Below, in pieces: positions 1 to 36,274 of a stretch of 38,211 nucleotides of DNA (position 1 is the first letter of the stretch; each line of letters starts with the position of its first letter). The notes under the pieces were generated by a model. That model had not been told where the DNA came from. It ran no database searches and saw nothing but the letters and a program-made list of their open reading frames with translations. This DNA comes from a virus (taxonomy: Duplodnaviria > Heunggongvirae > Uroviricota > Caudoviricetes). The stretch lies in the IMG/VR virus record IMGVR_UViG_2695420600_000008. One strand, given 5' to 3'. The position numbers were made by a program, and so were the translations under genes.

Positions 1-190
1 TAAGTGATACTGGTTGTCTGGAGATTCAGGGGGCCAGTCTACCACCCCTGATGTCAGGTAGGAAAACACCATATGTTTCTGCTCTGTTTTTCCTTAGAAA
101 TAGGCATCCTTGCTGGAACAAAGCGAGCAGCTATATTGACTCTATGTTGTGAGTGTGTTGATCCGTTCTGAGTTAATACATTTAAGTTGC

Positions 191-1300
191 TCACTCTGTT
201 TCTGCTATCCATTCCGGGATTTTTGCCTCAAGCTCAAGCTGCGTGGTAAAGCCGCTGTTATCAATGGTGTGCTCGGCTTTTGCAATAATCCAGTCCTGAT
301 TATCAATCTCGCTTTTAAATCCTGTTACCGTGCCATGCATTTCGGGGTAGAGTTCTGCACGTCCATGCGCCAGTGTGATGGAGAATGATGCGGCTCCGCG
401 TTGTAGCTGCTGCCACTTTGCCGCCGCTGCACGTCTTGCTGCCTGCTCGTTCTGATAAGTTTTGCGTAACACAAACACGTTGCCTTCCGCACCTTCCATA
501 TAGTCGCCTTCCCGGCTGCTGCTTTTCTCCTTTTTTGGTTTTGACGGTTTGCGGCGTTTCACGCTGACTTTTTTCTTTTTCCCGTAATTAAGATCAAGCC
601 AGTAAGCGCGTACCCCCGTATACGCTTCGCGGTCAGCAATGCGGAACTGATGGCGATCGCCGCTGCTGCGTGTGATGGCGAACGAGGGCAACGGCTGGCC
701 CTGTGCGTTCACGCCACCACCGGGCATGATGAATAACAGATTACCGCTTTTTACCGTGGTGATTGCGCCCAGCATTTCCGCCATGCGCGTAAGGAAGGAC
801 ATGTCGCTTTCTTCGGTCTGGTCGGCGTGGTCGATTTCGATATCCATCAGCATTTCGCTGATTTGCGGTTTCAGACCATACCGATGAGCGATGGCGGATA
901 CCACACGCTCAACGGTCACATCATGCCAGGACACCTCACGTTTAACGTTAAATTCAGCCCGAAAATCTGCGCTTCTGGCTGAAACAGTCAGCCTGTCCGG
1001 CGGTCCTTCGTGAGCGATTTCATCAACAATGTAAGTGCCTTTTTCTGTCAGCGGTTCTCCCTTCCAGCCAATGAGAACCGTCAGGCGCGCGCCCCGTGGC
1101 GGTAGCTGCAACTGACCATCCGCATCATCCAGCGTGATGGTGAGCTGGTCCGCCTCAAATCCCCGGTTGTCGGTCAGTGACAGGCTCATCAGGCGCTCTG
1201 CCACGCCTGACAGCGTTTTACCCTCCGCGAGAATATCAAAATCCGGCATTTTCACGGGGTCTGTGCCCTGACTGAGCAATTGCATGGTGGTGTCGGTCAT
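191..1300 (-). CDS. D: P2-type tail protein gpD (late control D family)
   Basis: ORF 191..1432 (-); preferred start is the Met at 1300 (MTDTTMQLL...). Internal basic linker KKKKVSVKRRKPSKPKKEK and overall pattern match the gpD family as I recall it. Confidence 0.8.
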   Translation of the reverse strand: MTDTTMQLLSQGTDPVKMPDFDILAEGKTLSGVAERLMSLSLTDNRGFEADQLTITLDDADGQLQLPPRGARLTVLIGWKGEPLTEKGTYIVDEIAHEGPPDRLTVSARSADFRAEFNVKREVSWHDVTVERVVSAIAHRYGLKPQISEMLMDIEIDHADQTEESDMSFLTRMAEMLGAITTVKSGNLLFIMPGGGVNAQGQPLPSFAITRSSGDRHQFRIADREAYTGVRAYWLDLNYGKKKKVSVKRRKPSKPKKEKSSSREGDYMEGAEGNVFVLRKTYQNEQAARRAAAAKWQQLQRGAASFSITLAHGRAELYPEMHGTVTGFKSEIDNQDWIIAKAEHTIDNSGFTTQLELEAKIPEWIAETE

Positions 1301-1457
1301 CTGCTCCCTCCCTGTGTGGCATGGTCGCATGTGCGTGCGGAGGGGGTTACTGCTTTTTGTTGTCGCCGTGGCGGGAGAATGGCGCAGGGGTGAGATTACG
1401 CGCGTGGTGGGTGATGATTGTTGCCGAATCATTTAACGGATACAAGGGGTTGAAGCT

Positions 1458-2642
1458 ATGAGTGAAACTCGTTTTCATGGTGCCCGTGTTACGGAAAATA
1501 CCGACCTGGTAACAGCGATTAACGATGTTGATTCCAGCGTTATCGGTATCGTGGCAACGGCGGATGATGCGGACGCGGAGCTGTTCCCGCTGAACAAGCC
1601 CACACTGCTGCCCCGCGTCAATGACGTGCTGGGAAAATGCGGAACAACGGGGACGCTTTATCGTGCGCTTAAGGCCATCGCAGACCAGGTGAGCACAAAG
1701 GTGATCGTCGTTCGCGTGGCTGAACACAAAGAAGAAGACGGAAAAACGCAGGATCAACTGGTTATCGGTGGTTCTGAATCTGACGGCAGCTATACGGGGA
1801 TGTATGCGCTGCTTGTTGCAGAGCAGGATGAAAGCATCGGATACCGTCCGCGTATTCTGGCCGCGCCGGAGCTGGACACGGAGGCGGTGACAAAATCCCT
1901 GTGCGTGATTGCGGGTAAACTGCGCGCGTTTGTGTATGCCTCATGTCATGACTGTAACACGATGGCTGAGGCAATTACCTACCGCCAGAAATTCAACGAA
2001 CGTGAGGTGATGCTCTTATGGCCGGACTTCATCGCCTACAACCCGAAAAGTGGCAAAAACGAAACGTTCCCCGCGCCTGCCTATGCGTGCGGCCTTCGTG
2101 CGTACATTGACCATGAGCAGGGCTGGCACAAATCGCTGTCCAACGTTCCGGTTAAAAATGTGCTGGGGATGTCCAGGCATGTGTTCTGGTCGTTGCAGGC
2201 CGAAGACAGTGATGCCAACAGCCTCAACAACAAAGAAATCACGACCATTATTCGTCGCAACGGGTTCCGCTTCTGGGGCAACCGCACACCGGAAACGAAC
2301 GCCTACATCTTTGAGGTGTATACCCGAACCGCACAGGTGCTGGCTGATTCAATTGCGGAAGCGCAGTTTGAAACCATCGACAGTCCACTGACGCCTGCGA
2401 ACGTGAAGGATGTTATCGGTGCCATCAGGGCAAAACTGGATTCACTGGTTACTGCCGGGAAACTGATTGGGGCGTCGTGCTGGTATGACGTGGTGGATAA
2501 CGGCACCACGAATTTACGTCAGGGGCGCGTGCGTATTCGCTACAAATATACGCCTGTTCCCCCGCTGGAAGACATGGAGCTTTACCAGTCGTTTACTGAT
2601 GAATTCTTTGGTCCCGCATTTGCGGTGCTGGGAGGTGCCTGA
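1458..2642 (+). CDS. FI: contractile tail sheath protein (P2 gpFI-like)
   Basis: 394-aa ORF; C-terminal motifs WPDF...GLRA.IDHEQGWHK.LSNV...RRNGFRFWGNRT...YTRTAQV...YTPVPPLE match my recollection of P2 FI; followed directly by the tube gene. Confidence 0.85.
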   Translation: MSETRFHGARVTENTDLVTAINDVDSSVIGIVATADDADAELFPLNKPTLLPRVNDVLGKCGTTGTLYRALKAIADQVSTKVIVVRVAEHKEEDGKTQDQLVIGGSESDGSYTGMYALLVAEQDESIGYRPRILAAPELDTEAVTKSLCVIAGKLRAFVYASCHDCNTMAEAITYRQKFNEREVMLLWPDFIAYNPKSGKNETFPAPAYACGLRAYIDHEQGWHKSLSNVPVKNVLGMSRHVFWSLQAEDSDANSLNNKEITTIIRRNGFRFWGNRTPETNAYIFEVYTRTAQVLADSIAEAQFETIDSPLTPANVKDVIGAIRAKLDSLVTAGKLIGASCWYDVVDNGTTNLRQGRVRIRYKYTPVPPLEDMELYQSFTDEFFGPAFAVLGGA

Positions 2643-3154
2643 TGGCTGTACCAAAACATCTTCGCTTTTTTACGCTGTTTGTGGATGGTGAAAACGAAGT
2701 GGGTAAGGTGACGTCCGTCACTCTGCCTAAGCTGACGCGCAAAACCGACAGCTACCGGGGTGGTGGCATGATGGGAGCGGTAAGTATTGATCTCGGCCTG
2801 GATGACTCCGCGCTTGATGCGAGCTTTGTCATGGGGGGCGCAGTTCGTGAGCTGTTCCTTAAGTATGGCGGCACGATTGACGGTACGCTGCTGCGTTTTG
2901 CGGGTGAATACTACACCGACGCTGAAAGCGACCTGTATGAAGTCGAAATGCGCGGACGTGTGACGGAAATTGATATGGGGGAAGCCAAACAGGGCGAAGC
3001 CACATCACACACTTACGCCATTAAAAACACCTACTACAAGCTGAGTGTTAACGATCGCCCGTTGTGGGAGATTGACCTGCTGAACTTCATTTACCGGAAG
3101 GACGGCAGGGACATTGTGCCCGATCGCATCCGTTCCGCGCTCGGGCTTGGCTGA
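2642..3154 (+). CDS. FII: tail tube protein (P2 gpFII-like)
   Basis: 170-aa ORF; N-terminal F.LFVDG...VTLPKLTRK...YRGGGM resembles P2 FII; start overlaps FI stop. Confidence 0.85.
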   Translation: MAVPKHLRFFTLFVDGENEVGKVTSVTLPKLTRKTDSYRGGGMMGAVSIDLGLDDSALDASFVMGGAVRELFLKYGGTIDGTLLRFAGEYYTDAESDLYEVEMRGRVTEIDMGEAKQGEATSHTYAIKNTYYKLSVNDRPLWEIDLLNFIYRKDGRDIVPDRIRSALGLG

Positions 3155-3208
3155 TAAGTAATATGCAGGCGGCGCAGTGCGTCGCCTCTGACTGAAAGGA
3201 GTTTCCTG

Positions 3209-9840: not shown

Positions 9841-10785
9841 TTAAATACTCCCCGCGTTATACCACGTCCCATTAATGCAATACTGAATTGGCCTTGCCTG
9901 AGTTGTATCAATTAGTTCATCTCTGTTTGAGTTAACGGAACCGGTAACAACATAACCTGACCTGTCAGACCATCCGGGACCATTCCATGTCTGAACAGAT
10001 AACAGACCACCAAGGCGAATACCTGTAATAAACCTTGAGTTACATTCTGCCTGCGTATATGCACCAACATCTCCCGCAGAGGGTTTGCGGGTTGTGGTGT
10101 AAAACTCTGACCAGTCAGCTTCAAAGCCATAACCATCACGCGCTGAACGATAAAAAATACCGCCGTTCCTGTAATTCACGCGGAACTGTACAGCAGGGCA
10201 GCTCCCCGTATTCATATTGAAGTGGAGGATTAATGTCGATGCGCCACCAATGTTTGCGTTATAGACCCCGCTATTCCAGTTCCAGCCAACAGCTTTATCA
10301 TTTCCGACAGTGCTTCCTGTTTGCCCTAAAGCAAATGCAGGTTGTTGATTTTTCGTGTTGTAGTCTCGTCGCCAGCCAGGAGCGTAAGCATCACCATGAT
10401 TAATATAAGTGAATTGAGCGTTAGTAATTCCGCCACCGCTGGACGTGCTCGGCGTGGTAACGCGTATGGTCATTGCGCCGCGAGTGCCAATAACTTCCAC
10501 CACAGCACCTGCAAGACAAATATTTCCGCAACCTGTATCTGTAATGACCTTATTATTTGCATAAGCCCATGAGCCTTTGCACATCCAGTAAGGATGGTTA
10601 AATGCTCCCTGACTCTCCAGCCACGAAATAAATTGCGCGGTTGTCCAGACCTGACTATCGCCACCAATATTCAGCCATGAGCTATATGCGCGGCAGGCAC
10701 CAATATTTTTGGTGAAGGTATCTTTCCCCGGAATATCTGCGCCGTTCTGGTTTTTCTGTAATGCGCCAGAAGCCTGATTTACCGT
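9841..10785 (-). CDS. tail fibre C-terminal variable cassette Sv (start-less, in frame with crossover site 2)
   Basis: ORF 9841..10584 stays open upstream to site 2 (…[27 protein letters not shown]…); ends INGTWYNAGSI like cassette Sv'. Confidence 0.8.
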   Translation of the reverse strand, partial: TVNQASGALQKNQNGADIPGKDTFTKNIGACRAYSSWLNIGGDSQVWTTAQFISWLESQGAFNHPYWMCKGSWAYANNKVITDTGCGNICLAGAVVEVIGTRGAMTIRVTTPSTSSGGGITNAQFTYINHGDAYAPGWRRDYNTKNQQPAFALGQTGSTVGNDKAVGWNWNSGVYNANIGGASTLILHFNMNTGSCPAVQFRVNYRNGGIFYRSARDGYGFEADWSEFYTTTRKPSAGDVGAYTQAECNSRFITGIRLGGLLSVQTWNGPGWSDRSGYVVTGSVNSNRDELIDTTQARPIQYCINGTWYNAGSI

Positions 10786-10838
10786 TTCCTGTAAACCGAG
10801 GTTTTAGATAATGGCCGTTTCCGGCCTGCATGGCATGA
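10778..10838. repeat. right arm of 61-bp inverted repeat (pairs with 7684..7744)
   Basis: Perfect reverse-complement identity to 7684..7744. Confidence 0.9.
10786..10811 (-). other. gix-like crossover site 2 (exact reverse complement of site 1)
   Basis: TTCCTGTAAACCGAGGTTTTAGATAA read directly. Confidence 0.85.
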
Positions 10839-11994: not shown

Positions 11995-13284
11995 TAGACC
12001 TCCTTTAATTTTGGCCCCGTGGCTGACAGATATAGCACCTGTTCTCAGATTTATAGCGAATGGCCTTAATGGGCCGATATTACCGTTTTCGCCTTGTCCT
12101 TCAGCCGTCGGAATGAAATGAAGAAAATCTTCTGAACGACGGAAAATTAGACCGAAGGTATCATTGAAAATTCGCAGCGCATTCACCGTGCCAATTTTCA
12201 GTTCTCCGGTCATTTTATCGCCGGAACGCTGAACGGCGTTACCAGCCTTGTTTACCGTTTCCTGTAAACCGAGGTATTCGATAACGGCAGCAACGGTCGA
12301 TTTCGCAAGAATATCCCGCCCGACTTTTGTCAGGGTTGCCAGGCTGGCGACATCATTCCCCGTAAAATACGGAAACCTGTCTGCCGCAGTAGCAAGCCCC
12401 GCCAGCGCCGTCAGAGTGGCATCTTTCGGTTGCTTACCCGCAAGCGCGTTAGTCATGGTGGTCGCAAAATTCGGGTCGTTGCCCAGCGCCGCCGCCAGCT
12501 CGTTCAGTGTGTTCAGTGCATCAGGCGAAGAGTCTACAAGTGCGGCAATCGCAGCCATAACGAAAGCCGTGCTTGCGATTTGGGTATTATTCGTTCCCTG
12601 TCGCGCAGTTGGTGTTGTTGGCGTTCCGGTCAGTGCCGGGCTGTTTAATGGGGCTTTCTTGTTCGTTTCATCCATTACTGCCTTAACGGCTTTTGGTGTC
12701 GCTGCCAGCGTTTCAGACGTGCTGTTGGTGGCGTTGCTGAGCTGGACAAGGCCTTTTGCGGTCAGCGAGGCGTCCGGGTGACGTCGTGACTGTTCATGCT
12801 CTTTCAGTTTGTCATCCACGTAATTCACTGTGGCCATCACCATGGTGTTATCCACGGTAAGCGCCACAGTGGCAGTGCTGGATACGGTCAGAATGGTGCG
12901 AAATGTTTGTGCACGTCCGGATCCTTCGGCAACGGTTGGCTTGTAACTTTCGGCAGTATTGCCTACCGCGATCAAATCGCCGTGCTCATCAAACACACCA
13001 ATTTCCCGGATCCAGAATCCGCCCGTTTCAGGAGGAATAACCAGCTCCGCAATAATGTGGTTCTGATGTGTTGCGTCCAGGGTGACGCGATTAACGGTAT
13101 GTCGCCACACCTCATGCACAAGACGGGTCTGCTTACTGTCTGGCGTGGGTAAAGTACCGCCGCCGTCACCCACGGCCATATGTGTCAGGCGGACAGGTTT
13201 CCCATCTGGCGCGGTTGCCTGCGCTAATTTTTTTGCACCCGTATCGGTGATAATGGTTTTAAATTTTCGTGTTGTGGTACTCAT
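11977..13284 (-). CDS. H: tail fibre protein gpH: constant N-terminal part fused in the current orientation to a truncated third cassette and terminated inside IS630 (functionally truncated fibre)
   Basis: 435-aa ORF; N-terminal ~330 aa resemble P2 gpH (…TAKGLVQLSNATNSTSETLAATPKAVK…AAVIEYLGLQETV); after crossover site 3 it encodes a collagen-like stub (…[22 protein letters not shown]…GAKIKGG) and then reads LNSCAE-stop from IS630 sequence. Confidence 0.8.
   Translation of the reverse strand: MSTTTRKFKTIITDTGAKKLAQATAPDGKPVRLTHMAVGDGGGTLPTPDSKQTRLVHEVWRHTVNRVTLDATHQNHIIAELVIPPETGGFWIREIGVFDEHGDLIAVGNTAESYKPTVAEGSGRAQTFRTILTVSSTATVALTVDNTMVMATVNYVDDKLKEHEQSRRHPDASLTAKGLVQLSNATNSTSETLAATPKAVKAVMDETNKKAPLNSPALTGTPTTPTARQGTNNTQIASTAFVMAAIAALVDSSPDALNTLNELAAALGNDPNFATTMTNALAGKQPKDATLTALAGLATAADRFPYFTGNDVASLATLTKVGRDILAKSTVAAVIEYLGLQETVNKAGNAVQRSGDKMTGELKIGTVNALRIFNDTFGLIFRRSEDFLHFIPTAEGQGENGNIGPLRPFAINLRTGAISVSHGAKIKGGLNSCAE
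12259..12284 (-). other. gix-like crossover site 3 (TTATCGAATACCTCGGTTTACAGGAA on the coding strand), in-frame junction of constant H
   Basis: Two mismatches to sites 1/2 (TCGAAT vs TCTAAA); unlike sites 1 and 2 it has no in-frame TAA, so H reads through it; 12233..12275 is also the reverse complement of the inner flank of site 1. Confidence 0.8.
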
Positions 13285-31046: not shown

Positions 31047-31297
31047 CTGCGTGACTCCTGTACCTGTCTGATAAGATTCACCTGCACCACGTTGGTGGCG
31101 CAGAAGTAAGTGCCGTCAGTGAGATAGATATGATGTGCATCCTTTTCTGAACGGTGTTTGTCGATTGTGGTAATCAGGCGTTCGTCAACTTCGTATTCAC
31201 GTCCTCTGGAGGTGAAACGAACGACAGGAAAATGCTTAATTGCCATTACGCCTCCTTGGCGTGTGCGAATACCTCCGCGAATGCGGATTGTTTTCAC
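31043..31297 (-). CDS. hypothetical early protein (84 aa, start uncertain)
   Basis: ORF in operon, 4-nt overlap with the downstream gene. Confidence 0.4.
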   Translation of the reverse strand: MKTIRIRGGIRTRQGGVMAIKHFPVVRFTSRGREYEVDERLITTIDKHRSEKDAHHIYLTDGTYFCATNVVQVNLIRQVQESRR

Positions 31298-31338
31298 ATT
31301 TTCTTATTTAACCTGGGGTCTTATTTGCGCGGTTATTC

Positions 31339-31446
31339 TTCAGTGAAAAAGCGTTCAATCTTTTTTACTGAATTAATAATTCGCATAATCCCAATGGCGC
31401 AGACCACCGAAATAATCAGAACAAGCCATGAAATAAATATACTCAT
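31339..31446 (-). CDS. putative 35-aa small hydrophobic (single-TM) protein
   Basis: Unannotated ORF MSIFISWLVLIISVVCAIGIMRIINSVKKIERFFTEE; ATGA start/stop overlap with the upstream gene (31443..31688). Confidence 0.3.
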
Positions 31447-31688
31447 GCGATATTTCCCAGCTTATACGGTTCAATATGTTCCCCGCATTCTGCGGCACAG
31501 ATCAGCTCGGAAAGTTCGTTAAGTGCATCCAGATCATCAGCGTAAAAAGCCACGTCATACAGACTTCGGATTGCTCTGGTCAATGAGTCACGGGCCGCAC
31601 GTTCAGCATGAGCGCCTGATGCACTTAAGCGAAAATAAAAACGCTCAAGTGCTTTGTTAATGAGAGTTTTATATTCTTTGCCCATCAC
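31443..31688 (-). CDS. hypothetical early protein (81 aa)
   Basis: ORF in early operon. Confidence 0.45.
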   Translation of the reverse strand: MMGKEYKTLINKALERFYFRLSASGAHAERAARDSLTRAIRSLYDVAFYADDLDALNELSELICAAECGEHIEPYKLGNIA

Positions 31689-31696
31689 AACGCCCT

Positions 31697-31984
31697 TTAA
31701 TCTGCTTTCTGTATTTCAGCTTCTGAATCCATACAAATAATTTCGATATAGGGTTCATCGCCATTAACCTGGCGTGCCTTTTCATCTTCGCTGATGATTT
31801 CTCGTACGGTCTGGTACGGAAGTTCCACAAGCAGTCGCGTGCCGTTCAGATAAACGTAAGTGGCTTCGTCGGCTCCGTTTTTACCCGCCGGAGTCACTCC
31901 GTCAATAGCGGATGCACGTAATAACAGTTCACCGCGAAAATCAATAAAACGGATAAATACACCTTGTGCATTGTCTTTGGTCAT
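31697..31984 (-). CDS. hypothetical early protein (~95 aa)
   Basis: ORF 31697..32098 trimmed to the internal Met at 31984 (MTKDNAQGV…) to avoid overlap with the upstream gene. Confidence 0.4.
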   Translation of the reverse strand: MTKDNAQGVFIRFIDFRGELLLRASAIDGVTPAGKNGADEATYVYLNGTRLLVELPYQTVREIISEDEKARQVNGDEPYIEIICMDSEAEIQKAD

Positions 31985-31994
31985 AAAGCACCTG

Positions 31995-32333
31995 TTATAA
32001 ATCAGCCTGTTTAATAAAACTTTGCCCGCGAAGCAGACGATCAACCGTGCGAAGTGCTTCGTATAATGTGAAATCCTGCCCGAACTGATTGTCGCCACAG
32101 CTCAGTGCAAAAATGCGGTTTCCGGTAAACGGATTGCGTGGGCATTTGTGGATCACGATTCCAGCTTTCTCAATCAGCCAGGCGTGCTCGCCGATTTGTT
32201 TTACTGGGTAGCCATCCGGCGTTGCGTGTGTATCACTCAGGCTGTAGCGGATGTTGCTGCGTGATGCACTGGTAGTGAAACGGTTAGCGTGGCGTTCTGT
32301 TCCGGTACAAAAATTACGGCGTTGCTTCAGCAT
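31995..32333 (-). CDS. hypothetical early protein (112 aa)
   Basis: ORF directly downstream of the cox-position gene. Confidence 0.45.
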   Translation of the reverse strand: MLKQRRNFCTGTERHANRFTTSASRSNIRYSLSDTHATPDGYPVKQIGEHAWLIEKAGIVIHKCPRNPFTGNRIFALSCGDNQFGQDFTLYEALRTVDRLLRGQSFIKQADL

Positions 32334-32347
32334 AAAATGACACCTCG

Positions 32348-32626
32348 TTATTTTGTCATCTGCACGTATTTCTCTGCGTTTCTGATGGTTTTCAGGAAAA
32401 TTGCGAAGAGATTTACTTTGCGTTTTGTGTTTCTTCCTTCTTGAGTAACGGGAATTACCGATCTATCAGCCTGCCTTCTTACAGCGAGAATGCTTTGATT
32501 TGTGCGTTTCGCATAATCCTCTAGGCTTTCTTCAAGTACCGGTAGCCCATGTTCATTACGGTATGGGTAGAACGCCGCCAAACGCTCAAAATCCGCTTGT
32601 TCGTATGTGTTAAGGACTTTTGCCAT
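32348..32626 (-). CDS. Cox/Apl-position early regulator (putative excisionase/repressor of lysogeny)
   Basis: 92-aa first gene of the leftward early operon, divergent from the C repressor gene; assigned by position only. Confidence 0.45.
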   Translation of the reverse strand: MAKVLNTYEQADFERLAAFYPYRNEHGLPVLEESLEDYAKRTNQSILAVRRQADRSVIPVTQEGRNTKRKVNLFAIFLKTIRNAEKYVQMTK

Positions 32627-32721
32627 GGTGTGATAACCTATTCAATCTGGTGCTATTTGTGGCTCTTTGTAGCGTCAAGTGGTACTCAACTGATAACCAA
32701 TATAGTATTCAGGTGCACACC
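32627..32721. promoter_or_regulatory. immunity switch region: divergent early (Pe) and repressor (Pc) promoters with candidate operators
   Basis: 95-bp gap between divergent cox-like and C genes; direct repeat TGATAACC at 32628..32635 and 32683..32690. Confidence 0.45.
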
Positions 32722-33033
32722 ATGTCAATAGAGATATCAAAGAAGCTAAAAGCAATTCGAGAATCTGAGGGGCTTAGTCAGGCAAAGTTCGCGGATTCAA
32801 TAGGTATTGCGGTTGGTACGGTTAAGCAATACGAGACTGGTATTCGAGGTGTGGGAACGGAGGTTTTACTGAAAATCACAATGCACCCGGAATTTAAAAA
32901 ATACACTACGTGGTTGATGAGTAACGAAACAAATGAGGCTGCTGGGCAGATCAGTCCTTCTCTCTCCCCTGATGGGCCAGAAAACACATCGTCTTCTCAA
33001 AAATCCCGCAAGACTGGCACACAGCCCGGCTAA
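32722..33033 (+). CDS. C: P2 C-type immunity repressor
   Basis: ORF 32620..33033; preferred start ATG 32722 giving 103 aa; helix-turn-helix LSQAKFADSIGIAVGTVKQYETG and the C-terminal …FKKYTTWLMSNE…GQISP… pattern resemble P2 C. Confidence 0.75.
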   Translation: MSIEISKKLKAIRESEGLSQAKFADSIGIAVGTVKQYETGIRGVGTEVLLKITMHPEFKKYTTWLMSNETNEAAGQISPSLSPDGPENTSSSQKSRKTGTQPG

Positions 33034-33082
33034 TCATGGAACGCTGGGGGCATGGTGGTCTTGTAACGCTGGGGCTTCACGA

Positions 33083-34060
33083 ATGAGCATAAAATCAATT
33101 CCGGGAGGGTATCTTCTTGACATGCGTCCTGAGGGGCGTAAAGGCAAACGCATTCGCAAAAAATTTAAAACGAAATCGGATGCAGTTTTATATGAGCGGT
33201 GGGTGCTGGCGCAACAGCATAACAATGAGTGGAAAGGAAACTCCATTGATCGCCGTCCGCTGTCAGTGCTTATTGACTTGTGGTGGAAATACCACGGCCA
33301 GCTAATGAAGTCAGGGCATAACACGCGCCTTAAATTGCTGCGCTTGAGTGAGGCAATGGATGACCCGTGCGTGCATAAACTTAATACAACGATGCTCACC
33401 GAGCTACGTGTGTCCAGGATAGAGCAGGGGATACAGCCCAGCACCATAAATCGAGAGATTGGGGCGTTAAGCGCGATGTTTACCGCACTCATCTCATCCG
33501 GCCATTTTCTTAACGATAACCCCGTTCAAGGCCTTAAAGGAATGAAGGTTAACGAGCGTGAAATGGGATATCTGAGTAAGTCTGAATGTGTTCAGTTGCT
33601 GGATGCACTGGCTGAAAATCCCGATGAACGGCTGGCCGTCGAAATCCTTCTGTCGACCGGGGCGCGATGGGGCGAGGTAGCGGCACTGGAGCAGCGCCGT
33701 GTTCTTCATTGTCGAATCACTTTTTCAAAAACGAAGAACAGCAAAAACCGTACCGTTCCTATTTCTGAAAGCCTGTTTGAAAAGATCAAAAAACGGGGCG
33801 GGAAACTGGTGTTTCCGACGCTGGATTATTCATTGGTTCGCGATGTCATCAAAACGGTCGCACCTGATGTTCCTGACGGCCAGGCTGTTCATGCGCTGCG
33901 CCACACCTTCGCCAGTCATTTCATGATGAACGGCGGCAATATTCTGACGCTCCAGAAAATTCTGGGGCACGCAAAGATTCAGACAACGATGATTTATGCC
34001 CATCTTGCGCCGGATTACTTGCAGGATGCGGTGAGGTTTAATCCCTTGGGAGGAATGTAA
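33083..34060 (+). CDS. int: P2-type integrase (tyrosine recombinase)
   Basis: ORF 32933..34060; preferred start 33083 (MSIKSIPGGYLLDMRPEGRKGKRIRKKF…), ~325 aa; C-terminal catalytic motifs LSTGARWGE, HALRHTFASHFMMNGG.ILTLQKILGH and MIYAHLAPDYLQDA (catalytic Tyr) match P2 Int. Confidence 0.9.
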   Translation: MSIKSIPGGYLLDMRPEGRKGKRIRKKFKTKSDAVLYERWVLAQQHNNEWKGNSIDRRPLSVLIDLWWKYHGQLMKSGHNTRLKLLRLSEAMDDPCVHKLNTTMLTELRVSRIEQGIQPSTINREIGALSAMFTALISSGHFLNDNPVQGLKGMKVNEREMGYLSKSECVQLLDALAENPDERLAVEILLSTGARWGEVAALEQRRVLHCRITFSKTKNSKNRTVPISESLFEKIKKRGGKLVFPTLDYSLVRDVIKTVAPDVPDGQAVHALRHTFASHFMMNGGNILTLQKILGHAKIQTTMIYAHLAPDYLQDAVRFNPLGGM

Positions 34061-34062
34061 CT

Positions 34063-34563
34063 ATGGAAATAAAAAAACCTACAAAAAAAGAGTTATATGA
34101 CTATTTACTATCGAAATATATAGAAGATAAATGCAAAGAAGAAGCTGATGAAATCAATAAGAAGTCGATGAGTCGTGTCAAAAAACATAAAGAGCGGCTG
34201 ATGGAGATTACGCCAGAAATCTTCTTCCGTTTCTTGTCTGAGAAGGGGGTCTCCAGTGTCTGCCCTTCATGTGGATCGTCGCGATTATCTGTTCCAGAAA
34301 GTATGGATCTTTGCTGGGATAAAAATAAGAAACCAGAAAATTTTAACAATCTACCCCTGGAGGAACAGAGTGAGTTAATTAAAGAGAACATAAAGCATTA
34401 TGTATCTTATGCTTTTTTGGGTGATGTTAAGAGCATACCTGATATGCGCAAAACTTATTACACGCTGCATTGCCTGAATTGTGGTTACCTGAGCCTTTAT
34501 CGTACGTCTGCGGTGCTGAAGTGGTTGGAGAAAGACAAAGCGCAGGATGGTGATAATGGGTAA
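34063..34563 (+). CDS. hypothetical zinc-ribbon protein (166 aa), AT-rich moron gene
   Basis: Low GC by eye; two CxxC pairs (CPSCGSS … CLNCGY); lysine/glutamate-rich N-terminus; no homologue recognised. Confidence 0.55.
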   Translation: MEIKKPTKKELYDYLLSKYIEDKCKEEADEINKKSMSRVKKHKERLMEITPEIFFRFLSEKGVSSVCPSCGSSRLSVPESMDLCWDKNKKPENFNNLPLEEQSELIKENIKHYVSYAFLGDVKSIPDMRKTYYTLHCLNCGYLSLYRTSAVLKWLEKDKAQDGDNG

Positions 34564-35101
34564 TGTAGCAAGAAATCTTTTCGGTAATTCAGCAGGTAGT
34601 GTGTCGCATTCTGAGCGTGATGTGCTTTATCATGGTGGCGATGGCGGCAGTAGTGGAGGCGGAATGTCAGATAAACTTGAAAGGCGAATTGAGCGGCTCG
34701 AAGGTGATTTATCGCTAACAAGAAACGACCTTGCGACGCTTGCTGAACGCACTACAAACCTCTCAACTAAAGCCGATGTTGGTGAGGTGAAAGGTGAACT
34801 CAAAGCAGACATAGCACATCTGAAAGGTGATCTTGAATGCGATATTGCGAATCTGAAAGGTGAGCTTAAATCTGATACAGCTAACCTGAAAGAGCAGCTC
34901 AAATCAGACATTAACAGCCTGAAGGGTGAGCTTACCGAAGCGATGGATAAACGCTTTGACAAGATTATGGATGAGATGAATCGGCGGTTTGACAAGGTTG
35001 ATGATAATACGAAGTGGCGTTGGAGTGGCATTATTGTGCCAGTGTGCACAACCATTTTCACAGCGGCGGTTGCTGTATTTGTTGCTAAATTTGTTGGCTG
35101 A
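34547..35101 (+). CDS. hypothetical tail-anchored coiled-coil membrane protein with five 11-residue repeats (184 aa)
   Basis: Repeats LKGELKADIAH / LKGDLECDIAN / LKGELKSDTAN / LKEQLKSDINS / LKGELTEAMDK; glycine-rich N-terminus; C-terminal transmembrane helix WSGIIVPVCTTIFTAAVAVFVAKFVG; overlaps the upstream gene by 17 nt. Confidence 0.55.
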   Translation: MVIMGNVARNLFGNSAGSVSHSERDVLYHGGDGGSSGGGMSDKLERRIERLEGDLSLTRNDLATLAERTTNLSTKADVGEVKGELKADIAHLKGDLECDIANLKGELKSDTANLKEQLKSDINSLKGELTEAMDKRFDKIMDEMNRRFDKVDDNTKWRWSGIIVPVCTTIFTAAVAVFVAKFVG

Positions 35102-35293
35102 TGATCCACAAATTGACCACATCTCTGTTATTTGTTGTGGTTGGCTGTGTTTTTGTGTGTCTGTAAGTCTTTGATAATTACCTAACTTATTGATTTTTGT
35201 TTGTGTTTATGGCCGCTCTGCGGCCTTTTTTCTTTTCACTGTCGAAGAGTCACCGTAAAATCAACGCCATGACACTTCAGCAGAACGGATACC

Positions 35294-36274
35294 ATGCTGA
35301 CACTTGCCCGCCAACAACAGCGACAAAATATTCGCTGGTTATTATGCCTGTCAGTTTTGATGCTGCTGGCGCTTCTCTTAAGCCTTTGCGCCGGTGAACA
35401 ATGGATTTCGCCAGGTGACTGGTTTACTCCTCGTGGCGAACTGTTCGTCTGGCAAATTCGCCTGCCACGTACGCTGGCTGTATTGCTGGTTGGTGCGGCG
35501 CTGGCTATATCCGGCGCTGTAATGCAGGCGTTGTTTGAAAATCCTCTGGCAGAACCTGGACTACTTGGCGTCTCTAACGGCGCAGGCGTGGGGCTTATCG
35601 CCGCGGTATTGCTTGGGCAAGGGCAACTCCCCAACTGGGCGCTAGGGCTGTGTGCGATTGCTGGCGCGCTTATCATCACTTTAATACTCTTACGTTTCGC
35701 CCGTCGTCATCTTTCGACCAGTCGGTTATTGCTGGCTGGCGTTGCATTAGGGATTATCTGTAGCGCACTAATGACGTGGGCTATCTACTTTTCCACCTCT
35801 GTTGATTTACGTCAGCTGATGTACTGGATGATGGGCGGTTTTGGCGGCGTAGACTGGCGGCAAAGCTGGCTGATGCTGGCATTGATCCCCGTGTTGTTGT
35901 GGATCTGTTGTCAGTCCAGGCCGATGAATATGTTAGCACTTGGCGAGATCTCGGCGCGGCAACTGGGTTTACCCCTGTGGTTCTGGCGCAATGTGCTGGT
36001 GGCAGCGACCGGCTGGATGGTTGGCGTCAGTGTGGCGCTGGCGGGTGCTATCGGCTTTATTGGTCTGGTGATCCCACATATTCTTCGGTTGTGTGGTTTA
36101 ACCGATCATCGCGTATTACTTCCCGGCTGCGCGCTGGCAGGGGCGAGCGCAGTGCTGCTGGCCGATATTGTAGCGCGCCTGGCATTAGCTGCCGCAGAGC
36201 TGCCTATTGGCGTGGTCACCGCAACGTTGGGTGCGCCGGTGTTTATCTGGTTATTGTTAAAAGCAGGACGTTAG
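35294..36274 (+). CDS. btuC: vitamin B12 ABC transporter permease BtuC
   Basis: 326 aa, [25 protein letters not shown]…, full-length match to E. coli BtuC as I know it. Confidence 0.95.

Follow-up and report, generated by a model that had tools for sequence, protein, structure and literature searches.

The window analyzed in this work is a stretch of 38,211 nucleotides (IMG/VR virus record IMGVR_UViG_2695420600_000008, Caudoviricetes) that carries a P2-like prophage together with adjoining DNA of its host. Between the integrase gene, int, and the host junction it includes two small genes, here designated A and B, which encode a predicted zinc-ribbon protein and a tail-anchored coiled-coil protein, respectively. 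From the comparison of many lineages we conclude that A and B form a conserved, coupled and mobile two-gene accessory unit of temperate Enterobacterales phages. Regarding its function, we favor, with a probability of about 0.4, the reading that the pair acts at the inner membrane to protect the lysogen from other phages. New here are the coupled A-B unit, the probable dual start of gene B, its stalk of polymorphic length, caused by changes in repeat number, and the modular swap of A with the N-terminal peptide of B; the resemblance of B to the DUF1640/CCDC90 family likewise goes beyond an earlier note on this DNA.

A conserved and mobile pair of genes

The two open reading frames that the earlier note had placed between int and the host junction are present at the following positions:

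34063 to 34563, plus strand: gene A, encoding a soluble protein of 166 residues, predicted to be a zinc ribbon, of the phrog_4293 family (match at 8e-23)
34556 to 35101, plus strand: gene B in its long form, encoding a tail-anchored coiled-coil protein of 181 residues; the in-frame ATG at 34547 is an alternative start (184 residues)

In every homologue of gene A whose context was read, the next gene encodes a tail-anchored partner, and its start overlaps or abuts the stop codon of A. These contexts come from Escherichia coli, Salmonella, Klebsiella, Serratia, Dickeya, Morganella and Providencia, from phage SPN3UB, and from one free-standing chromosomal copy. In E. coli and Salmonella the gene order is C-int-A-B-btuC, as in the window, where C encodes the immunity repressor; in Klebsiella and Serratia the order C-int-A-B is found at other integration sites. 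The Dickeya pair lies between the repressor gene and int, and those of Morganella and Providencia lie across attP, between the host junction and ogr. P2/186-like prophages thus carry the pair on one or the other side of attP. The Morganella pair is cut off from int by integration, and upstream of it a promoter with the sequence TTGACT-17-TATTAT was recognized by eye. In the lambdoid Salmonella phage SPN3UB the pair corresponds to gp24/gp25, in a moron island beside arc/ant and between tail genes, and in one enterobacterial chromosome a free-standing copy, without a phage, is located between cdaR and yaeH. The possibility that the pair encodes an accessory factor for excision or recombination was rejected, given that it is also found away from int and free-standing.

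Among 5426 complete E. coli genomes the exact pair is present in 23 and gene B in 39 (0.4-0.7%), and the best-matching genomes are those of Shiga-toxigenic strains, e.g. O26 RM8426. No match was obtained when 50,697 phage records were searched at the nucleotide level with the module, or by tblastn with gene A; phages were retrieved only by divergent members of the family, and these are SPN3UB-like Salmonella, Klebsiella and Enterobacter phages. A scan of contigs representing one genome per species, carried out with a narrower alignment, detected two related loci only. The gene A family was resolved into 18 clusters when searched with a single sequence and into 51 (at 90% identity) when searched with a profile, all of them from Enterobacterales; at 50% identity, 175 representatives were counted among 1.84 billion proteins, and almost all of these have 80-180 residues.

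Additional genes accompany the pair in two lineages. In Providencia rettgeri (L011:5869-7472) A-B is followed by two more genes, for a protein of 309 residues with an N-terminal membrane segment and for another of 216 residues; neither gave a match in Pfam or PADLOC, and they might extend the module in that lineage. In Dickeya (L017:5285-5896) a tail-anchored protein with a Flk_N domain is encoded just upstream of A-B, between the repressor and int, and is the second tail-anchored protein of this lysogenic operon.

A module that is self-contained when it moves, and that occurs without a phage between cdaR and yaeH, could be an addiction module, similar to a toxin-antitoxin system, that stabilizes the prophage. 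In that case B would act as a small membrane toxin, the upstream gene A, translationally coupled to it, would provide the antidote, and cells that lose the prophage would be killed or arrested; this explanation overlaps with models of abortive infection. The gene order, the small sizes and the stop/start overlap are typical of type II operons, and B is a single-helix membrane protein with weak matches to XhlA and holin-type families. Nonetheless, no toxin or antitoxin family or domain was matched by A or B in Pfam, NCBIfam or PADLOC, so that the resemblance to a type II operon is confined to the layout of small overlapping genes; gene A does not include a helix-turn-helix or ribbon-helix-helix autoregulator domain, and the long variable rod of B would be needless for a simple membrane toxin. 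We consider this explanation unlikely.

Base composition and selection

The GC content is 38.5% for gene A, 45.2% for gene B, and 41.2% for the module as a whole (34063-35208), compared with 49.4% for int, 53.1% for the rest of the prophage and 52.0% for the host DNA. The value of the module is below that of all the 659 segments of the same size in the rest of the prophage (minimum 42.8%, median 54%); the neighboring early region (31200-32720) is also low in GC (45%). The windowed calculation therefore agrees with the earlier note, which had described a lower GC content than in the flanking phage and host DNA and had regarded the pair as a separate acquisition, a moron at the edge of the prophage. 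This origin is also borne out by the rarity of the pair and by its presence in unrelated phage backbones and in different slots.

For five E. coli alleles, the ratio of nonsynonymous to synonymous polymorphism (pN/pS) is 0.11 for gene A, 0.23 for the core of gene B and 0.22 for its N-terminal extension. Some observations could be expected from chance open reading frames or decaying remnants without function: in RefSeq the product of A is annotated only as hypothetical and the start given for B differs from that of the long form, and one Dickeya genome has its partner gene broken in two inside the repeats. This explanation is effectively refuted, and A and B are real genes under purifying selection, because this selection is strong, the cysteines of A are invariant in 38 sequences, its fold is predicted with confidence, and the pairing is maintained in many genera.

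Gene A encodes a predicted zinc-ribbon protein

The two CxxC pairs previously noticed in the first gene are formed by C67 and C70 (CPSC, residues 67-70) and by C137 and C140 (CLNC, residues 137-140), and all four cysteines are invariant in 38 homologues. The AlphaFold2 model obtained with the alignment of these 38 sequences has a predicted local distance difference test (pLDDT) score of 88.8 and a predicted template modeling (pTM) score of 0.70. It starts with a long helix (8-46) and a short one (51-60), which are followed by a beta-sheet core with both CxxC knuckles and by a C-terminal helix (148-163). Strands border the two knuckles in the model, which is the arrangement of a zinc ribbon, and on the basis of the motifs and the model the A protein is predicted to belong to this class of folds. 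It has a pI of 8.1, near neutral, and no membrane segment.

No Pfam family was matched by gene A, or by ten distant relatives that were scanned as well, and no named zinc-ribbon family was reached at threshold. The search of a viral structure library gave nothing below an E value of 1e-3, and no fold relative was found in the PDB; a profile search of PDB sequences with gene A gave no match, and PDB sequence searches for A and B were without meaningful result. The phrog_4293 label itself carries no function.

Gene B encodes a tail-anchored coiled-coil protein with a stalk of variable length

Five tandem 11-residue repeats and a single C-terminal transmembrane helix had been attributed to the second gene, and both were recovered, together with a third element that marks the start of the stalk:

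34760 to 34777, plus strand: beta-layer motif LSTKAD, with which the stalk starts (B residues 69-74); FATKSD, FATKAD or YATRQD in relatives
34787 to 34951, plus strand: five tandem repeats of 33 bp, or 11 residues (hendecads; B residues 78-132), which are also repeats at the DNA level
35024 to 35086, plus strand: C-terminal membrane helix (B residues ~157-177), with KWRW before it and only KFVG (4 residues) after it

The repeats are, in order, VKGELKADIAH, LKGDLECDIAN, LKGELKSDTAN, LKEQLKSDINS and LKGELTEAMDK. Hydrophobicity peaks at 2.43 in residues 159-177 (Kyte-Doolittle, 19-residue window), in line with a tail anchor. In the AlphaFold2 model, residues 1-35 are disordered (pLDDT < 50) and are followed by a helix from 38 to 147, which would be ~16 nm long if straight, and by a second helix from 150 to 180. 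The beta-layer motif has been defined as [aliphatic]-A-T-K-[polar]-[DE] and is prominent in DUF1640 proteins (PMC4786415).

All the partners of gene A share a common plan. From the N-terminus, it starts with a short peptide, often with the sequence K[E/D]RD[V/I], and a glycine-rich linker that ends in a near-invariant methionine; these are followed by a helix of the LEKRVERLE type, the beta-layer motif, a stalk of highly variable length, and a TKW-plus-hydrophobic tail that is kept in all partners. The shortest partners have 99-107 residues, compared with 181 in the window. The E. coli alleles of gene B encode 192, 181, 170, 159 or 148 residues, and the steps in length correspond to whole 11-residue repeats. 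The Dickeya partner (L017:6431-7063) has seven tandem 9-residue ATKADLQ repeats in place of the hendecads, a nonad pattern that alpha/beta coiled coils are reported to show (PMC4786415). Another Dickeya genome (L018:6431-6983) has the partner gene split into two open reading frames within the repeats, which suggests repeat slippage, a pseudogene or phase variation. The rod of B would probably be a coiled coil of three chains, with a beta-layer and with hendecads that vary in number.

Against PF07798 (DUF1640/CCDC90-like) the gene B protein scores 24.1-24.5 bits (E about 3e-5), below the gathering threshold of 33.5; of its 21 aligned relatives, 16 match the same family at E<1e-3, the best at 2.5e-11. 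RefSeq names for gene B are 'DUF1640 domain-containing' or 'CCDC90 family' protein. The protein shows the beta-layer of DUF1640, with S in place of A in LSTKAD, as well as a coiled-coil stalk with a single C-terminal membrane helix. Ahead of the beta-layer the model has only ~30 helical residues, and no PDB sequence match to MCUR1 or CCDC90B was found. By its sequence, gene B is best described as DUF1640-like, not as a proven member. An assignment to the DUF1640 proteins of tail-fibre type, as in T5-like phage, was rejected, since the annotation there corresponds to a large structural protein that is not tail-anchored. In the literature on DUF1640 and on tail-anchored prophage exclusion proteins we found no functional study of a bacterial member and no description of the A-B pair.

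The resemblance of B and its relatives to PF07798, the beta-layer motif, and the position of the pair in a lysogenic operon would also fit with lysogenic conversion of host physiology, that is, with B acting as a membrane scaffold that recruits A or host factors to the inner membrane and in this way changes transport, stress tolerance or the envelope. The mitochondrial members MCUR1 and CCDC90B are described as scaffold factors in two reports (PMC7519068; bioRxiv 10.1101/2025.10.14.682030). However, nothing points to a partner in the host, the module is infrequent and of patchy distribution (0.4-0.7% of E. coli genomes) and is restricted to contexts of phage type, and gene B of the window falls short of the Pfam threshold and seems to have no globular head. 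For these reasons a role of this kind seems rather improbable.

Start sites of gene B and exchange of its N-terminal peptide

The start of gene B overlaps the stop codon of gene A by 8 nt (ATGGGTAA). This 8-nt overlap is found in most lineages; it amounts to 11 nt in Dickeya and 1 nt in Serratia, and in TUM1880 the two genes abut. RefSeq calls gene B as a non-overlapping form of 145 residues from the ATG at 34664. Upstream of this ATG the B frame is open, beginning at or next to the A stop, and the peptide that it encodes is similar across lineages that are only 23-40% identical. The long form, which overlaps gene A, is supported by this comparative evidence. The gene overlap described in the earlier note applies to the long form and not to the form called by RefSeq. 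A second start is indicated by the following element:

34655 to 34666, plus strand: internal Shine-Dalgarno sequence GGAGG (34655-34659) and ATG at 34664, within the glycine-rich linker; putative start of a short isoform (34664-35101, 145 residues)

A perfect GGAGG precedes the conserved internal ATG by 3-7 nt in 12/12 lineages examined, where it is encoded by the Gly-Gly codons of the linker, and Met37 of gene B is nearly invariant. From these sequence features we consider that both starts are probably used, giving rise to a long form translationally coupled to A and to a short form.

The conserved dual start, as in lambda S105/S107, could also point to an accessory function in lysis or lysis timing, with B as an XhlA-like holin partner whose two isoforms act like holin and antiholin, and with A as a regulator. 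B and its short relatives have weak matches to XhlA (PF10779) and to holin/hemolysin PHROGs: against XhlA, the partners from Morganella and Dickeya score 24.6 and 17.3 bits, respectively, and short partners match phrog_1193 at 9.5e-6. These XhlA scores are below the gathering threshold of 34.7, and for gene B of the window XhlA is not among the 25 best Pfam families shown. In Bacillus subtilis PBSX a lysis-dependent vesicle phenotype needs xhlA with xhlB and xlyA (PMC5589764). In contrast, no holin or endolysin gene was found next to A-B in any context read, and in Dickeya the lysis genes are elsewhere and on the other strand; the pair is located after int, within the lysogeny module or next to it, or is free-standing without a phage. 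By score and by context, gene B is not a member of XhlA, and a lysis function is very unlikely.

Two E. coli prophages that share the integration site of the window prophage (STEC388 and TUM1880) have an A type of 132 residues that retains the motifs but is only 26% identical to that of the window. From 34643-34651 onward, gene B of these prophages has an identity of at least 97% with that of the window. This breakpoint falls in the glycine linker, and upstream of it the N-terminal peptide of B is of a different type. The A type and the B N-terminal peptide were therefore exchanged together, and the rod and the anchor were kept. Such a co-swap is expected if the two contact each other, and it hints at binding of A to the N-terminal peptide of B. 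In TUM1880 (L003:4520-4920) the 132-residue A variant is apparently intact and lies between int and the DUF1640 gene; RefSeq leaves this stretch unannotated.

Position of the pair at the edge of the prophage

The surroundings of the pair are formed by the following features:

32722 to 33033, plus strand: P2-type immunity repressor gene C (HTH_3; PF01381, 1.1e-9), the first gene of the lysogenic operon
33083 to 34060, plus strand: tyrosine integrase gene int (PF24624, 1.5e-28; PF00589, 1e-19)
35102 to 35208, no strand: AT-rich non-coding spacer of 107 bp (32.7% GC) with short T/G-rich direct repeats
35209 to 35240, plus strand: prophage-host junction and attR core region, where identity with K-12 begins; it includes the hairpin of the ihfA rho-independent terminator (35211-35225)

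The prophage sits in the E. coli ihfA terminator, directly upstream of btuC. The alignment with K-12 shows that from ~35209 rightward the window is identical to the ihfA-btuC spacer, which marks the start of the host DNA, and past the junction follow btuC (35294-36274), btuE, btuD and nlpC. The window includes neither attL nor ogr. In phage P2 the attP core is ~80 bp from the int stop codon and this interval holds protein-binding sites only, without a gene, just as the earlier note had stated. By analogy with P2, in which the core has Int arm sites and sites for IHF and Cox on its flanks, the spacer at 35102-35208 presumably corresponds to the phage's attP arm region.

Two nucleotides separate the int stop codon from the start of gene A, and a scan of this junction revealed no promoter-like site on the plus strand and no convincing terminator. 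The terminator scan places the end of the C-int-A-B unit at the hairpin 35211-35225. Because of these features, and of the position in the lysogeny module, A and B are most likely co-transcribed with the lysogenic C-int operon, and would thus be made in the lysogen. An Rfam search of 32400-35400 gave no RNA family.

The att core rebuilds the hairpin 35211-35225, which should halt read-through from the prophage into btuCED. At its other end (1-3200) the window starts within the prophage: gene D is encoded on the minus strand, and the sheath and tube genes follow on the plus strand. The loci of Morganella and Providencia have this layout of D/ogr followed by the sheath gene as well. A direct repeat of 60 nt with 80% identity (10756-10815 and 12229-12288, 1473 bp apart) is located among the structural genes of the prophage.

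A possible role in the protection of the lysogen

Genes that serve the lysogen typically show what is seen for A-B, namely a cargo-like composition, a patchy distribution, and a location in the accessory slots of phages that are unrelated, and for this reason we favor such a role for A-B. In P2-like phages the genes of this type are classically old, tin and fun, which act in phage exclusion. A-B has one plausible effector element only, and this is membrane-associated; the short partners have a weak likeness to XhlA. The window pair occupies the int-att cargo slot of P2-like prophages, where alternative A types also occur; a 2026 survey reported this interval as a minor defense hotspot, with 3% of P2 defense systems (PMC13586616), which fits the proposed role. 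The defense or exclusion role that had been suggested for the pair is therefore plausible from its position and architecture.

In the mechanism that we propose, the A protein would be a cytoplasmic zinc ribbon, and B a tail-anchored rod that exposes the glycine linker and the disordered N-terminal peptide at its cytoplasmic tip. A would dock on the N-terminal peptide of the long form of B and so be held at the inner membrane. The A-B complex could then interfere with the entry of a genome at the inner membrane, as in superinfection exclusion. Alternatively, A could sense an infection cue and release the membrane helices of B, and the membrane would be permeabilized, so that the infection is aborted in the manner of lambda RexA/RexB or of a holin. 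The A-B contact, the formation of a trimer, the expression in the lysogen and the anti-phage role are inferred. A more specific version, which we offer tentatively and regard as rather doubtful, is that A-B represents an undescribed two-component anti-phage or exclusion system in which bacterial relatives of MCUR1/CCDC90B act as a trimeric membrane 'ruler'; its length would evolve by gain and loss of repeats, and the two isoforms produced by the dual start would set the number of tethered zinc-ribbon sensors.

Several points weigh against a protective role. Homology and structure searches connected B with DUF1640/CCDC90 and A with phrog_4293, but neither protein with a known defense, toxin or lysis family, and no homology to a characterized defense, exclusion or toxin protein was detected in PADLOC, Pfam or NCBIfam. 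In PADLOC-DB v2.0.0 gene A had no significant match (best E 0.0054, DUF3800), and gene B gave only coiled-coil noise, with segments of LmuB, LeoBC and ZorA at E values of 4e-5 to 3e-2 and at most 21 bits; no match above threshold was obtained for either gene in Pfam, and none in NCBIfam. Neither A nor B has an enzymatic or an obvious effector domain. The neighboring genes in Providencia, SPN3UB, Serratia, Dickeya and a Klebsiella phage were without a significant defense match; they include two weak PADLOC matches only, HEase and a PDC-S05 candidate family, and also ORF6N, Bro-N/HNH and a lipoprotein signal. The prior given by the position is modest, with only 3% of P2 defense systems in the int-att slot (PMC13586616), and one membrane helix per chain is a weak basis for a pore. 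Transcription in the lysogen, trimerization, zinc binding and the A-B interaction are predictions.

If the pair protects lysogens, a compact type of effector without an enzyme domain, which is missed by PADLOC, would be added to the defense repertoire of prophages, and the prokaryotic side of DUF1640/CCDC90, a family whose mitochondrial members, MCUR1 and CCDC90B, are still debated, would gain a first functional handle. If the 'ruler' reading is true, A-B would provide the first function for prokaryotic DUF1640 proteins. If no phenotype is found, A-B would be an ordinary prophage moron in a cargo slot already described. The dual start, the repeat-number polymorphism and the co-swap of A with the N-terminal peptide give specific predictions that are cheap to test.

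Comparison with known systems

Gene B has in common with the DUF1640/CCDC90 family (PF07798, which includes human MCUR1 and CCDC90B and prokaryotic members) the C-terminal anchor, the long coiled-coil stalk and the beta-layer. In contrast with this family, it seems to have no globular head, and in its place the model shows a helix of ~30 residues, the glycine linker and the disordered peptide; it also has an obligate zinc-ribbon partner and hendecads of variable number. XhlA, of the lysis cassette of B. subtilis PBSX, is like gene B a small tail-anchored coiled-coil phage protein, and the partners of 99-107 residues are the closest to it; nonetheless, A-B lies outside the lysis cassette, belongs to temperate phages of Gram-negative bacteria, and B is always accompanied by gene A.

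In another phage, phiCTX, a conversion gene, ctx, is also adjacent to att. The int-att cargo of P2-like prophages shares with A-B the slot, the type of prophage, the low GC content and the patchy distribution, whereas the published hotspot rests on recognized defense systems (PMC13586616) and the A-B pair is not recognized by PADLOC. Small Col(156) MOBQ plasmids of E. coli list genes annotated as DUF1640 (PMC13516913), and lambda-like Mannheimia phages carry single-helix XhlA-domain genes of 161 residues beside cI (PMC4553209). Tail-anchored coiled-coil proteins may thus be a recurrent cargo of mobile elements.

The rexA-rexB genes of phage lambda are a two-gene unit co-transcribed with the immunity repressor in the lysogen, and encode one cytoplasmic and one membrane protein. 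In the Rex system the cytoplasmic protein activates the membrane protein, RexB, which has four membrane helices, and the infection is aborted. The PADLOC search detected no sequence similarity between A-B and RexAB; gene B has one membrane helix in contrast with the four of RexB, and the anti-phage activity of A-B is only proposed. Lambda RexAB would be the closest analogue, in function only, of the mechanism proposed here for A-B.

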